A DNA stretch of 64,000 nt, from NCBI GenBank assembly GCA_018238155.1, contig JABCTZ010000019.1, positions 96,001-160,000 of the forward strand, given 5' to 3'. Shown one piece after another: positions 21,598-25,853 of the stretch. Below the pieces are notes generated by a model. That model saw only the letters and a list, made by a program, of their open reading frames with translations, was not told the origin of the DNA and did not search any database. Position 1 is the first letter of the stretch; each line of letters opens with the position of its first letter. Position numbers and translations under genes: made by a program. This DNA comes from Candidatus Heimdallarchaeota archaeon. GTDB lineage: Archaea > Asgardarchaeota > Heimdallarchaeia > JABLTI01.

Positions 21598-22335
21598 CTA
21601 TTGGATATGAAATTGTTTTTTGATTACTTCTTTTACTATCGATTCCAATGATTTCATTAGTGGATTAAAGGAGCTTGGTCTATATTTTCGTTTAAAATGC
21701 CCGTTGGTATCTAAAAGGATGTCTCGAGGAGTGTTCCGCAAAATCTGCTGTAAGTCACTTTTTGCTTGTTGGCAAGAACCATTAAAGATATGATCTTTCA
21801 AATTTGGGAACAAATCACTAACTCCTGCACTCTCAAAGAGTTGCTGTATGTGTCGTTGGGATATTTTTCTGCCCCAAGGTAAATCTTGTTTATTAACGAA
21901 AACGGTAAATGGTATTTTCTTATTAATGATATCCTCACCCTTCAATTCTTTTAATTCTCTAAGTGACCAAATGTTTTCTTCCCAATTATCTAAATCAGCA
22001 TCTATGACTATTACTAATCCATGAATGCCTTGTAAAACAACTTTTCTAGTTTCTCGTAATCTTCTTTGTCCTGCAGTTGTAAAAACATGGATTTTGAAAA
22101 GATATTCATCAGTTTCTGGTTTCGCACCAAATCCAAAAACTGCCTGATCAAAGAATACAGTTCTACCGGTTTGCTGGTCTGCAACAGTAACAAAATCGAA
22201 TACTCCTTTGGGATTCTCTAAAGATTTCATAACCTTAACAGCTGTTATTGTAAATGTTTTTCCAGACATTGTCGGACCCCAATAACAGATTTTTAAGGAT
22301 CTTATTGTTCGATATTTATGTATTAGCACAATCAA
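21598..22335 (-). CDS. MglA-family small GTPase
   Basis: KICYWGPTMSGKT, RTVFFD, TTAGQ, RKVVLQGIHGLVIVID, NKQDLP: MglA-type motifs. Confidence 0.85.
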   Translation of the reverse strand: MIVLIHKYRTIRSLKICYWGPTMSGKTFTITAVKVMKSLENPKGVFDFVTVADQQTGRTVFFDQAVFGFGAKPETDEYLFKIHVFTTAGQRRLRETRKVVLQGIHGLVIVIDADLDNWEENIWSLRELKELKGEDIINKKIPFTVFVNKQDLPWGRKISQRHIQQLFESAGVSDLFPNLKDHIFNGSCQQAKSDLQQILRNTPRDILLDTNGHFKRKYRPSSFNPLMKSLESIVKEVIKKQFHIQ

Positions 22336-22426
22336 ACCTCAAGTTAGTTTTTTTTCGCTATTTGTATTAATTAAAGATACTTTTTGCATACAAAAAATGT
22401 TTTGATTTGACATTTTCCATTTGTTA

Positions 22427-23545
22427 TTATTCTATAGGAATTATTGCTTCCCCACACTTGGAGCATTTATCTGCCCAAGGAATTCTTGCATTGCATTGTG
22501 AACATATCCGTAAGATTTCAGTAGATTTGCTGGTTGGAGTAAGGATGGGTTCTGGAATAGGATATATCATAAGTGGTTGTGGGTCAGGTATCTTATCAAT
22601 TTCAATTTCTTTCTCATCAATAGTACCTTTAATTCTGTCAATATATGGATTAACTAAATCTAATCTTTTGTTAGCGGCTTCTAATAATTCGGTATTATTT
22701 TCAGAAAGTTTTGCTGCGTTTTCAAAATAACTTCTAGCTTTCAGTAAATACATATAGGCTTTATCTGATTCACTTCGATTTGAAAGTCCGACTGCAATAT
22801 AGAAACAAGACATTCCCAATTCAGTAGAAGCCAGTATTTTCACTCGATTGTCAGATTCTTCTGGAAGGTCAAAATTCATCATAGCAAATTTATAAGAAGC
22901 TGCACCCGCGAAAAGCTTCGATGCTTTGTCAAAATCACCTTGTTTACGAGCTAAAAATGCTTCTGATTTTGTAATTTCTGCTTCAATTTCCAGTTTCCTT
23001 AACAAAAGCATTTGGTAGAACGGTTTTGCATAATGATTTTCTTGATCTGGTGATAATTTTTCAATAAATTCTATAGCGCTTAGTAGTGCTGCTAATGATG
23101 AGATATGATAATATCTATACTGTAAACTAGTTTGAACATTTGATATGGCTCTTGATTGATAGACTGCAGATACAAGATAAAGTAGAATGGCTATTTCATA
23201 ATTCTCTTCTACAACTCTACCAAGATATCCATCATCTAAAGAAATCCAGCGAGTTTTTAGGCCTATAGCTTCAAATTTTGTTTTTCCAAAGCTATTAGCA
23301 AATATATTTGAGATTGTTTGCAATGCTTTTATTTGACTTGATGAATTTTTAGATGGAAAAATTTGTTCTACATATTCTGGAAGGGTTGCTTTTAATTCAG
23401 AAATAATTTTCACTGTCTTTTGATTTGCACTCGTTTCATCAATAGTTTCAATGAGTTTCAGAAAACCTATCAAGAAATCTTTCTCTTCTTCAAGATATAT
23501 GGAAATCAATTTTGGGTCAAAGGGAATTTTATAAAGGGCTTTCAT
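22427..23545 (-). CDS. Helical-repeat (TPR-like) protein with Pro-rich linker and C-terminal Zn ribbon
   Basis: AFLARKQGDFDKASKLFAGAA; DKAYMYLLKARSYFENA; CSQC...CSKCG. Confidence 0.65.
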   Translation of the reverse strand: MKALYKIPFDPKLISIYLEEEKDFLIGFLKLIETIDETSANQKTVKIISELKATLPEYVEQIFPSKNSSSQIKALQTISNIFANSFGKTKFEAIGLKTRWISLDDGYLGRVVEENYEIAILLYLVSAVYQSRAISNVQTSLQYRYYHISSLAALLSAIEFIEKLSPDQENHYAKPFYQMLLLRKLEIEAEITKSEAFLARKQGDFDKASKLFAGAASYKFAMMNFDLPEESDNRVKILASTELGMSCFYIAVGLSNRSESDKAYMYLLKARSYFENAAKLSENNTELLEAANKRLDLVNPYIDRIKGTIDEKEIEIDKIPDPQPLMIYPIPEPILTPTSKSTEILRICSQCNARIPWADKCSKCGEAIIPIE

Positions 23546-23568
23546 TTGTTAATCACTTCTTTCCAATA

Positions 23569-24258
23569 TTATTCAACTATGATGATTGCCCCAATTGCAT
23601 CATCTAAGGATGGCCTATCAGGCATCATTTCTTTCTTGGTTTTTTCATTTGTTTCTACTTTCTTTAATTGAGGAGGACCACCGCGAGCTGGTCTATCTAC
23701 GCTAGGAGCTGGTCTTGATCTTGTTGTTGCAGCAGTTGTAGTACCTGAGGTTGGATGTGTTGCTGGTTGGCCATCCCTCAAGTCTGTCATGACTTTGGTC
23801 ATTACTTCAGCAAATTGACCAAAAACAGCTTGTAATGATTCTGAATCTTTCGATTCTTCTGAACTACCTGTATTTAAGCCATAAATTCCACGTTCGATTC
23901 TCATTTTCAATCTAATAGAATCGCGAACCCATTCAGCTCTTCCTCTGGTGGCAACATTTTCATTAATATATTCAATAATGTCCATGTGTTTAGCTGGACT
24001 AAGAGTAACAACAATATTCATTGTTTCAGAACTAATTGTTTCTGTTTTGTCACCTTTCAATGAAATGCTACGTTTTATAGTTGAGATTAGAGTTCTTCTT
24101 TTGCCTTTATTCAAATCTCGACTAACTTCTTTTGATTCTTCTTTCCACTTCTGTGGAATTGTCTTCTTCGACTTTTTACTTGAAGTACTCTTCTTCTTCT
24201 TTTTTTTATCTTTGGAAGTTTTGGATGTTGGTTTTTTAGAGCTCATTGAATCCATCAT
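23569..24258 (-). CDS. ParR-like ribbon-helix-helix protein with Lys-rich N-tail and WH2/beta-thymosin-like C-terminal motif
   Basis: MNIVVTL-SPAKHMDIIEYINE-RGRAEWVRDSIR (beta-alpha-alpha); LKKVETNEK at 23641-23667; start overlaps the end of the actin-like gene. Confidence 0.6.
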   Translation of the reverse strand: MMDSMSSKKPTSKTSKDKKKKKKSTSSKKSKKTIPQKWKEESKEVSRDLNKGKRRTLISTIKRSISLKGDKTETISSETMNIVVTLSPAKHMDIIEYINENVATRGRAEWVRDSIRLKMRIERGIYGLNTGSSEESKDSESLQAVFGQFAEVMTKVMTDLRDGQPATHPTSGTTTAATTRSRPAPSVDRPARGGPPQLKKVETNEKTKKEMMPDRPSLDDAIGAIIIVE

Positions 24259-25309
24259 CTCCTAATCTATTCACAAAAGTTCTTGCGAACATTTCAAATC
24301 CCATAGCATTAGACATTACGGGATCCTCTGGCATTGCAAGCATTTCTGGGTGATCAGCTAAACCTGCTTGTTCAAATCCTGCTCTTAATCGGTCACCAAA
24401 AATATGCATACCTCCTCCACAAAGGATGACTTTTTCTATAATTGCATCAGGTGGCAAAGTGCCTATTAATCGGTTTACTTCATCCAAAATGACATCTGAA
24501 ATAATTTCTATATGATATTCTTTCATACTTGCAATATCCCATTTTTCTCCTTGAATTGTAAGAATGTCTTTTTGCTGAGAAAGAGATGTCATAAGATCAA
24601 AAGGGCGAATTATTTTACCCGTTTGATTTTGCAATTCTTGGGCAATTCTATGTGTTAGAGTGTCGGTTGCTTCTTCTAAGCTCCCCGAAGCTTGACGCAT
24701 AATTCTTCCTTCGTACAAGGTTAAGATGTCTGTTGAACCATGTCCAACATCGATAACAATAGCATCTACCGCTCGCGCCTCCCCTTCAGTTTTAAGGGTG
24801 TGATAATACGTTCCAAAAGGCTCTGGCATTACTATGCAATTTTTTATTGTTAATTTCCGGTGAAATTTTTCACCAGTAGCTTCATTTTCAATTTTAAGAT
24901 CTAAATCTCCTTTCAACCCTTTAGCAAGTTTAGTCATTTCCTTTTTAGAAGAAGCTACAGGTACACCTGTTGCCATAATAATTTGATCGTGATCTTTTTT
25001 AGTAATTAAAGCAAGAACCGCTTTTATTGCTAAGATAGCATCTTCAATACTTTTTACTTTCCCTTCGCTAGCTATTGCTCGTTTTATTTCGCTCTGTAAT
25101 CTTGCAAGTTCACCAACATAAAGACTCTTTTCTCCATCAGAAATAACTAAATTTTTCTCTAAAGATTTATCGCCACTAAATCCACTCCAACCTTGTAATG
25201 GAGTGCCAACTATAGAAGGAATCTTCTTTAGGTTATCGGCACAAGAGAGTTTTATTGTTGATGTTCCTAAATCGATACCAATTGCTCGATATGTGGGTCT
25301 TAAAGACAT
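24236..25309 (-). CDS. ParM/StbA-family actin-like ATPase
   Basis: Phosphate-1 IGIDLGTSTIK, ATGVPV, connect-1 MPEPFG, phosphate-2 VIDVGHGSTD, adenosine ILCGGG, connect-2 DPVMSNAMGF. Confidence 0.9.
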   Translation of the reverse strand: MSLRPTYRAIGIDLGTSTIKLSCADNLKKIPSIVGTPLQGWSGFSGDKSLEKNLVISDGEKSLYVGELARLQSEIKRAIASEGKVKSIEDAILAIKAVLALITKKDHDQIIMATGVPVASSKKEMTKLAKGLKGDLDLKIENEATGEKFHRKLTIKNCIVMPEPFGTYYHTLKTEGEARAVDAIVIDVGHGSTDILTLYEGRIMRQASGSLEEATDTLTHRIAQELQNQTGKIIRPFDLMTSLSQQKDILTIQGEKWDIASMKEYHIEIISDVILDEVNRLIGTLPPDAIIEKVILCGGGMHIFGDRLRAGFEQAGLADHPEMLAMPEDPVMSNAMGFEMFARTFVNRLGDDGFNEL

Positions 25310-25571
25310 TGTGTATTTACTTCCCCCTAAGGGTTGAATTTTGTATTATATTATTAACTAGATTTTAATACACTTAAAACCTATTGAATTATTCATACAT
25401 AATAGTAAAAAGTGTTGCCATTTTAGCATATAATTTCACTATGAAATAGACTTCTGTGGAACAACTTTTAATATTCATTTAATATTCGAGTATATGTAGT
25501 TTTATTAAAACGGATTTTTATTTCAAAAAGCATTAATTATAAAAATCAAGAAATATTGTTGGTGTGTAAAG

Positions 25572-25853
25572 ATGTTCAAAGATTTATCAACAAAAGAGCT
25601 AAAAGACCTATATGCTAATCGACCATGGATAAATAAAACAGCGTTAACAAATCTCTTTTTGTCTGCTTTTGCAGAAGCAGTTATTCCTGCATTGGATAAA
25701 GCCATGGAACGAATGTACAAAATTCTTTCAAGTACTGAATTCATTGCAAAAATGGAAGAGGAAGTAATTGACGAATCTGTTGCTCGAGTAATTGAAATGA
25801 TAAAAGACGAACTTCGTGAAGAGATAGTTAAAGGAATGGCTTTTGAAGAATGA
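25572..25853 (+). CDS. Small helical hypothetical protein
   Basis: 93-aa ORF with GGTG SD-like motif, divergent from the actin-like gene. Confidence 0.6.
   Translation: MFKDLSTKELKDLYANRPWINKTALTNLFLSAFAEAVIPALDKAMERMYKILSSTEFIAKMEEEVIDESVARVIEMIKDELREEIVKGMAFEE

Follow-up and report, generated by a model that had tools for sequence, protein, structure and literature searches.

The 64,000-nucleotide stretch analysed here (the window: positions 96,001 to 160,000 of contig JABCTZ010000019.1, from a Candidatus Heimdallarchaeota archaeon) carries on its reverse strand a gene for a 229-residue protein that we call the adaptor, whose 5' end overlaps the stop codon of the gene for a 357-residue actin-like ATPase (ALP). 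The adaptor ends in a bipartite tail, in which a Thr/Pro/Arg-rich linker leads to GGPPQLKKVETNEK, then to a 10-residue Lys/Glu spacer, and finally to PDRPSLDDAIGAIIIVE and the stop codon; the last segment consists of PDRPSLDDAI, an aliphatic run and a terminal Glu. We find that the ALP is ParM-type, that outside the adaptor's core nothing is better conserved than the two tail elements, and that the same tail ends proteins unrelated to the adaptor that are encoded beside ALPs in other lineages. We propose that the adaptor is a ParR/CorR-like partner of this ALP, and that the tail probably docks on it. The features of the two genes, with conservation read from an alignment of 34 homologues and structure from AlphaFold2 models (pLDDT, predicted local distance difference test), are as follows.

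23569 to 24258, reverse strand: adaptor open reading frame, 229 residues
24109 to 24246, reverse strand: Lys/Ser/Thr-rich low-complexity N-terminal region, residues 5-50; differs in length and sequence between homologues but is always basic; pLDDT below 50
24058 to 24108, reverse strand: basic amphipathic helix, residues 51-67; R54, L57, I58, R63 and I65 invariant; modelled helix 36-66
23887 to 24027, reverse strand: best-conserved core, residues 78-124, strand-helix-helix and ribbon-helix-helix (RHH)-like; invariant block in the alignment, helices 88-101 and 107-123 at pLDDT 81-87
23773 to 23844, reverse strand: conserved helix, residues 139-162, with a GQFA..M motif; from conservation and model
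23683 to 23772, reverse strand: disordered Thr/Pro/Arg-rich linker, residues 163-192; variable, no secondary structure, pLDDT below 50
23653 to 23682, reverse strand: upstream tail element GGPPQLKKVE, residues 193-202, the 'WH2-like' motif; from conservation
23623 to 23652, reverse strand: Lys/Glu spacer, residues 203-212; variable, 7-12 residues long in the family
23572 to 23622, reverse strand: terminal element PDRPSLDDAI...VE, the final 17 residues (213-229), presumed groove-binding peptide; from conservation and recurrence
24236 to 25309, reverse strand: ParM/Ta0583-type ALP, 357 residues, presumed target of the tail; from Pfam, PDB and AlphaFold2/Foldseek

The original prediction had placed an LKKVETNEK string behind a Thr/Pro-rich linker at the adaptor's C-terminus and had made the adaptor the partner of the actin-like gene. 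Both statements hold: the open reading frame and its coordinates are confirmed, and the overlapping genes keep their order in 11 of 11 genomes, where a small divergent gene, the ALP, the adaptor, a 372-residue helical-repeat/zinc-ribbon protein and a 245-residue small GTPase succeed one another. Because most homologues begin at the fifth codon, the true adaptor start is probably M5 at 24246, which would make the gene overlap 11 nucleotides rather than 23.

A search of 5.8 billion proteins returned 79 adaptor homologues, all from metagenome-assembled genomes and nearly all of the named ones labelled Heimdallarchaeota or Asgard, and an exhaustive HMMER search added three further distant members at 24-34% identity. 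Among 301 sampled genomes of the phylum the adaptor is present in 11, its own and 10 of 10 others of its GTDB family, in one copy each, and it was not found in that sample outside this one family. Within the alignment P196, K199 and K200 never vary, and G193 and P195 are conserved to at least 90%; in the terminal element P213, R215, P216, L218, D219 and D220 are invariant even in the three members of 24-34% identity, which also keep P-x-L-[KR]-K-M-[ED] upstream. The core of the upstream element reads LKKVE in 34 of 78 tails, LKKIE in 24 and another [LIV][KR]K variant in 20, with GGPP before it in 66. Of the 81 family members whose C-terminus is intact, 80 carry [LIV][KR]K[VIML][EDN], the exception (P0008) reading LKKVV; a strict pattern for both elements fits 78 of 84 sequences, the other six being three near variants and three truncated or frameshifted proteins. 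Conservation covers GGPPx[LIV]KK[VIM][ED] and, after 7-12 spacer residues, P[DE]RPxLDDA[IM]xx[IV][IV]V, with an almost invariant Glu or Gln as the very last residue.

It is this conservation across the family that lifts the LKK core above chance. In the proteome, LKK[VTI]E occurs 6 times against 9.4 expected from composition, and 6-of-9 matches to the thymosin signature LKKTETQEK number 5 against 6.8 expected; a 7-of-9 match is unique to the adaptor tail and was seen in 0 of 5 shuffles. Of the string that had first drawn attention, the LKK core is kept in orthologues and the ETNEK extension is not: TNEK follows the core in 1 of 78 tails, that of this genome, and elsewhere the residues are VKDD, IKDE, VEED, TDEK and the like. 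A SUMO-type reading of LKKVE was dropped, as its residues do not fit the consensus hydrophobic-K-x-E.

The product of the upstream gene is ParM-type by both fold and sequence. Its Pfam matches are ALP_N (5.9e-15) and MreB-like_C (8.6e-14), and it matches the NCBIfam ParM model PRK13917 at 2.1e-19, under that model's cut-off. The closest solved relatives by sequence are pCBH ParM (3.5e-6), Dh-cParM1, Ta0583 and CorM (E 0.003). A Foldseek search with its AlphaFold2 model (pLDDT 89.5) places Ta0583 first (template modelling score, TM, 0.74-0.84), followed by ParMs, CorM (TM 0.73-0.77) and Alp7A, all of which outrank MreB, MamK and actin. The genome encodes two further ALP paralogues (C15:223167-224195 and C3:82368-83399), at 56% and 51% identity, and the ALP family is present in only 9 of 61 sampled genomes of the phylum, from 3 families.

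The tail also appears outside the adaptor family. Scanning the genome for the terminal element identified one further protein, of 237 residues and encoded on another contig (L058:5391-6104, reverse strand, equivalent to contig C19:93393-94103, reverse strand), which resembles the adaptor in nothing but the 14-residue terminal element (BLASTP E 0.002); in its orthologues this element is conserved while its surroundings vary. Contigs from a Loki lineage (L064:4843-8494) and a Hel lineage (L065:4771-8303) each have two ParM-type ALP genes arranged head to head. Directly downstream of one ALP on each contig (P0134 in Loki, P0141 in Hel) lies a gene whose product (427 residues in Loki, 397 in Hel) ends in the same bipartite tail and has weak TPR matches, while the other ALP of each pair is followed by an unrelated protein of 250-303 residues that has no tail. 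BLASTP aligns the Loki partner with the adaptor over 36 columns of the tail (E 7e-4) and finds nothing else significant; the Pro, the aliphatic residue, the V-E and the E-K..K of the spacer all match, and the LKK position reads I-D-V in the Loki tail and I-R-I in the Hel tail, the lysines being replaced by Asp-Val and Arg-Ile. Distant adaptor paralogues (24-34% identity) are in addition separated from an ALP by a single gene on two independent contigs (L016 and L028).

Two side observations belong to these loci. The 237-residue second tail protein consists of an N-terminal strand-helix-helix-like segment, a coiled coil, a basic region, RPxLDD..[IV]I[IV] and an acidic extension; its gene does not lie beside an ALP, is conserved in 3 relatives and has a distant homologue in a second family. 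In L016 and L028, the gene between the ALP and the convergent adaptor paralogue encodes a conserved protein of 237-238 residues with no known family (L016:5722-6435 and L028:5631-6347, both reverse strand).

The tail motif is specific, since a relaxed regular expression gave no match in about 95 kb around eleven other ALP genes (within about 4 kb of each: ALPs of two other families at 7 loci, the genome's two other paralogues, and metagenomic L066 and L067), though this also means that some ALPs have no such neighbour. No longer protein (400-2000 residues) shares exact words with the tail, a weak negative since the Loki and Hel tails themselves share no 5-residue word with the query. With the Loki 427-residue partner as query, a search of 201 genomes returned only its own genome and a weak, tail-only match to a relative's second tail protein; the tail-bearing partners evolve too fast for whole-protein searches. 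On these sequences, the tail is a portable short linear motif that ends unrelated proteins as well as the adaptor.

One alternative concerns the part of the tail that would do the docking. It holds that only the terminal RPxLDD docks, with GGPPxLKKxE kept as a hinge, as a site of modification or proteolysis, or as a contact to DNA or membrane. The 237-residue protein and the Loki and Hel tails do keep the terminal element and not the lysines, and the spacer between the two elements varies between 7 and 12 residues. The alignment of the Loki partner with the adaptor, however, brings in both elements together through a common P-x-[LI]-x-x-[VIA], which suggests a single bipartite unit, and we consider docking by the terminal element alone quite unlikely.

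A second alternative concerns the target rather than the peptide, and involves the two genes downstream of the adaptor:

22427 to 23545, reverse strand: third operon gene, 372 residues, helical-repeat (weak TPR) protein with a C-terminal zinc ribbon; weak Pfam matches only, syntenic in 11 of 11 genomes
21598 to 22335, reverse strand: fourth operon gene, 245 residues, MglA-like small GTPase; best PDB matches MglA, 7e-15, syntenic in 11 of 11 genomes

Short peptides, extended or C-terminal, can be bound by TPR domains, and the tail, or its LKK element, might dock on the TPR-like/zinc-ribbon protein or on the MglA-like GTPase instead of the ALP. The strict synteny of the four operon genes, the weak TPR likeness of the third product and MglA likeness of the fourth, and the position of the tail at the very C-terminus with its almost invariant Glu or Gln all speak for this possibility, as do the weak TPR matches of the Loki ALP partner, which link TPR proteins to the system. 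On the Loki and Hel contigs and in L016 and L028, however, the tail stands beside ALPs with neither a TPR/zinc-ribbon gene nor the GTPase nearby, the acidic extension that follows the motif in the 237-residue protein indicates that a free carboxylate is not required, and by our count the ALP is the only partner common to all tail-bearing loci. We therefore regard docking on another operon product as unlikely.

Docking of the tail on the 357-residue ATPase, a check suggested by the original prediction, was addressed by complex prediction. The ALP alignment together with adaptor residues 183-229 gave a weak score of 0.39 (runs of 0.35, 0.46 and 0.39), compared with 0.08 for the best of three controls, with at least 71% of contacts in agreement between the runs and a partner pLDDT of at least 50. 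The mark applied to such scores is reached by 58 of 80 solved complexes and by 2 of 110 mismatched pairs; at scores of 0.60 or less it is reached by only 7 of those 80 solved complexes and by both mismatches. ParM-ParR complexes have already been solved, and the pass may in part reflect likeness to them.

From the organisation of the operon, the repeated occurrence of the tail next to ALPs, the complex score and the precedents of ParR, CorR and arcadin-2, we propose, with a probability of roughly 60%, that the adaptor is a ParR/CorR-like protein that works with the upstream ParM-type ALP, and that its bipartite tail docks on that ALP. In the mechanism we envisage, the basic N-terminal region and the probable RHH core would hold a cargo (DNA, possibly membrane), and a disordered Pro/Thr-rich arm would lead from the core to the tail. 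The terminal element P[DE]RPxLDDA[IM]xx[IV][IV]V would most likely enter the hydrophobic groove between ALP subdomains IA and IIA, the site that ParR uses on ParM, CorR on CorM and arcadin-2 on crenactin, and the upstream element GGPPx[LIV]KK[VIM][ED], 16-17 residues earlier, would probably make a second extended contact, with the ALP surface or with a neighbouring filament subunit. We are less certain of this specific role for the LKK element than of the docking of the tail. The basic N-terminus and RHH-like core suggest that the cargo is DNA, and the amphipathic helix would also allow a membrane. That an MglA-like GTPase and a helical-repeat protein are consistently encoded alongside might reflect spatial control of the filament.

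The body of the adaptor belongs to no family in Pfam or NCBIfam scans of whole adaptor proteins, and the one match of a PDB profile search, to GST (E 0.19), is due to chance. Its core aligns with 27 Heimdall RHH_1 domains in hhalign over the strand and both helices (P 0.015), and with only six RHH_1 domains at E 0.094; language-model (Atlas) feature matches, weak at 0.80-0.84, are to RHH_1, Plasmid_stab_B, TraM and RHH_6. An RHH fold for the core is plausible but unproven. The amphipathic helix at residues 51-67, with a hydrophobic moment of 0.73 at residues 55-65, may contact DNA or membrane.

The arrangement is close to several described systems. Like ParR of the type II ParMRC system (plasmid R1, PDB 4A62), the adaptor is a small protein encoded directly downstream of a ParM-type ATPase; it has a flexible region besides its probable RHH core, and the short peptide at its C-terminus is predicted to bind the groove of the ALP. 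Unlike the ParR systems, which sit on low-copy plasmids, the adaptor is chromosomal, single-copy and vertically kept in one archaeal family, and the 260 nucleotides upstream of its ALP hold no iteron centromere. The contig extends over at least 160 kb with housekeeping context around the locus, and it is because of this chromosomal context and vertical inheritance that the locus is not a plasmid partition cassette. The adaptor further differs from ParR in showing no sequence similarity to ParR families and in its long Lys-rich N-terminus and extra conserved LKK element, and its operon, unlike ParMRC, continues with the TPR/zinc-ribbon protein and the MglA-like GTPase.

Among described systems CorMR of Anabaena sp. 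PCC 7120 comes closest; in it a chromosomal ParMR pair has become a membrane-bound cytoskeleton, and its adaptor keeps the RHH domain and the C-terminal peptide (bioRxiv 10.1101/2025.06.27.661541; PDB 9rmi). CorR does not bind DNA and binds the membrane through a helix in its first 10 residues (bioRxiv 10.1101/2025.06.27.661541). The present locus likewise pairs a chromosomal, vertically inherited ParM-like gene with an adaptor bearing a C-terminal peptide of predicted binding function, and by sequence as well as by fold CorM ranks with the top matches of the ALP. CorMR is bacterial, however, and CorR has neither an LKK element nor an association with an MglA-like GTPase; the adaptor's amphipathic helix, whose role is a prediction, follows a basic tail of about 50 residues. 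Arcadin-2 of Pyrobaculum (PMC5173319; PDB 5LY3) is, like the adaptor, a small archaeal protein from an actin gene cluster, and its last 17 residues alone bind a hydrophobic groove in the ParR orientation (PMC5173319). Its target, crenactin, is a relative of true actin and not a ParM-type ALP, it acts as a depolymeriser or sequesterer, and it has no RHH-like core and no sequence similarity to the adaptor. Like that of ParR, the C-terminal peptides of CorR (residues 150-162; bioRxiv 10.1101/2025.06.27.661541) and arcadin-2 (residues 187-203; PMC5173319) are the sole binding elements for their filament proteins.

Several results weigh against docking on the ALP in a ParR-like manner. Within about 4 kb, neither an adaptor nor any tail-bearing neighbour is encoded beside the genome's two other ALP paralogues, and no tail-bearing open reading frame lies beside the ALPs of two other families (7 loci). 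The ALP residues specific to orthologues, 36 positions read without coordinates, are scattered along the sequence and form no cluster. The complex score is weak and came with no reported interface and no confident model of binding. Taken as a helix, the terminal segment shows little amphipathicity (hydrophobic moment 0.3-0.4), and many of its residues are beta-branched; it may be bound in strand form or have a different target. No parC-like iteron array was found in the 260 nucleotides upstream of the ALP, the only region searched. The RHH assignment lacks a Pfam or NCBIfam match and reaches only P 0.015 in hhalign, and comparing the fold of the adaptor monomer model (pLDDT 57.7) with 48,161 PDB representatives returned nothing but helix hairpins, at Z of at most 5; this last search is uninformative because RHH is an intertwined, obligate-dimer fold.

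The feature that brought the tail to notice, its likeness to WH2 and beta-thymosin motifs, suggests yet another reading, in which the tail is a genuine WH2/beta-thymosin module that is related to eukaryotic WH2 and binds true actin (or the ALP) in WH2 fashion. A WH2 domain binds monomeric actin and has an amphipathic helix of about three turns immediately before LKK[TV]. The L-K-K-[TV] core has its counterpart here (58 of 78 tails read LKKV or LKKI, and the remainder have another [LIV][KR]K variant), in an extended region near a hydrophobic segment able to fill an actin-fold groove. Pfam WH2 (PF02205) is moreover the only family reported for the isolated tail (E 0.085), no other site in the proteome agrees with the thymosin signature at 7 of 9 positions, and a true actin (L023; 445 bits to Pfam Actin), an ARP-like protein (L024) and a two-domain gelsolin (L025:1435-2088, forward strand, contig C7) are all encoded in the genome. 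Asgard two-domain gelsolins carry an LKKT-like motif between their domains, and such motifs do act on actin (PMC9433394).

Set against this, the WH2 score of the isolated tail is 13 bits with a cut-off of 23.1 and covers 11 profile positions only (17-27 of 28, the LKK half), and none of 34 whole family members matches. The WH2 helix is missing, as the original prediction had itself remarked: AlphaFold2 gives no helix in residues 163-217 and a short one at 218-223, and LKK is preceded by GGPP within the disordered Pro/Thr/Arg linker. The sole hydrophobic segment of the tail comes after the LKK motif, beyond a long spacer at a distance of 16-17 residues, which reverses the order of elements found in WH2. 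The ETNEK extension, which resembles that of beta-thymosin (PF01290), is not conserved, the homologous tails of the Loki and Hel lineages do without the lysines, and the adaptor gene is syntenic with a ParM-type ALP while the true actin gene lies on another contig. According to Izore et al. (2016, PMC5173319), the groove-bound peptides of ParR and arcadin-2 point in the opposite direction to thymosin, and the adaptor tail is expected to be oriented as they are. Since ParR-type peptides run opposite to thymosin and homology cannot reverse along a chain, the likeness to WH2 is analogy at most, and we consider a genuine WH2 module very improbable; the reversed order could still, as analogy, put the basic segment on a similar surface.

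The WH2/thymosin likeness is a lineage-specific look of the upstream element and is no sign of homology. The hybrid ParR/WH2-like adaptor of the original prediction is supported in its ParR half, by the architecture, the conserved tail and the ParM-type partner, and fails in its WH2 half, on the sub-threshold score and the absent helix. Its suggestion of a link between prokaryotic and eukaryotic actin regulators is not supported, in view of the reversed order of elements, the lysines replaced in the Loki and Hel tails and the opposite peptide orientation. The likeness to Asgard gelsolins is similarly limited: their motif, too, is an L-basic-basic-[TV] sequence in contact with an actin-fold protein (a contact that is predicted for the adaptor), but it follows a gelsolin domain, which the adaptor does not have, and acts on true actin. 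The genome's own two-domain gelsolin reads LVHV at the inter-domain LKKT-like position.

Asgard archaea have been studied for their eukaryote-like actin system. Our full-text literature searches found no description of the widespread Asgard ParM-type ALPs, of their function or of their partners. What is known is an adaptor with a groove-binding peptide; what is new is a bipartite tail common to several proteins encoded beside Asgard ParM-type ALPs. The groove-binding-peptide principle is common to ParR, CorR, arcadin-2 and WH2, and the resemblance here is one of analogy; the result also removes a tempting but unsupported WH2 link between prokaryotes and eukaryotes. A docking tail common to different ALP-adjacent proteins would at the same time provide a concrete handle on Asgard ParM-type filaments and their clients. 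A broader and more speculative idea, to which we give a good deal less credence than to docking itself, is that the tail (P-x-[LI]-x-x-[VIA], a spacer and RPxLDDxxxx[IV][IV][IV]) is a docking code that recruits unrelated proteins to these filaments, among them the RHH-like adaptor, the coiled-coil protein and the TPR-like proteins of the Loki and Hel lineages. The Heimdall version would be wired to an MglA-like polarity GTPase, and the upstream element would be a 'retro-WH2', a convergent re-invention of the WH2 solution in which a basic extended segment may follow the surface of the ALP, starting from a peptide that sits in the groove with opposite polarity. If this were true, the filaments would constitute an unstudied second actin-like cytoskeleton beside lokiactin.

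Among the neighbouring genes, the 372-residue protein (22427-23545, reverse strand) has no family assignment and is 51-94% identical across the 11 genomes, and no Roadblock/MglB gene adjoins that of the MglA-like GTPase (21598-22335). For 22400-25400 no RNA evidence is listed. Upstream of the ALP, the 260-nucleotide region mentioned above contains a two-copy 10-nucleotide tandem, small palindromes and one conserved box:

25406 to 25429, reverse strand: 24-nucleotide non-coding box, about 100-120 nucleotides before the start of the ALP; no near-invariant stretch in the intergenic alignment of 11 genomes is longer

This box is a candidate promoter or operator, and could be one for the adaptor; a conserved element resembling GGTTTTAAG follows about 20 nucleotides beyond it. 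An open reading frame of 93 residues (25572-25853, forward strand), which is divergent from the ALP gene and belongs to no family, occupies the same position in 11 of 11 genomes at 60-98% identity.

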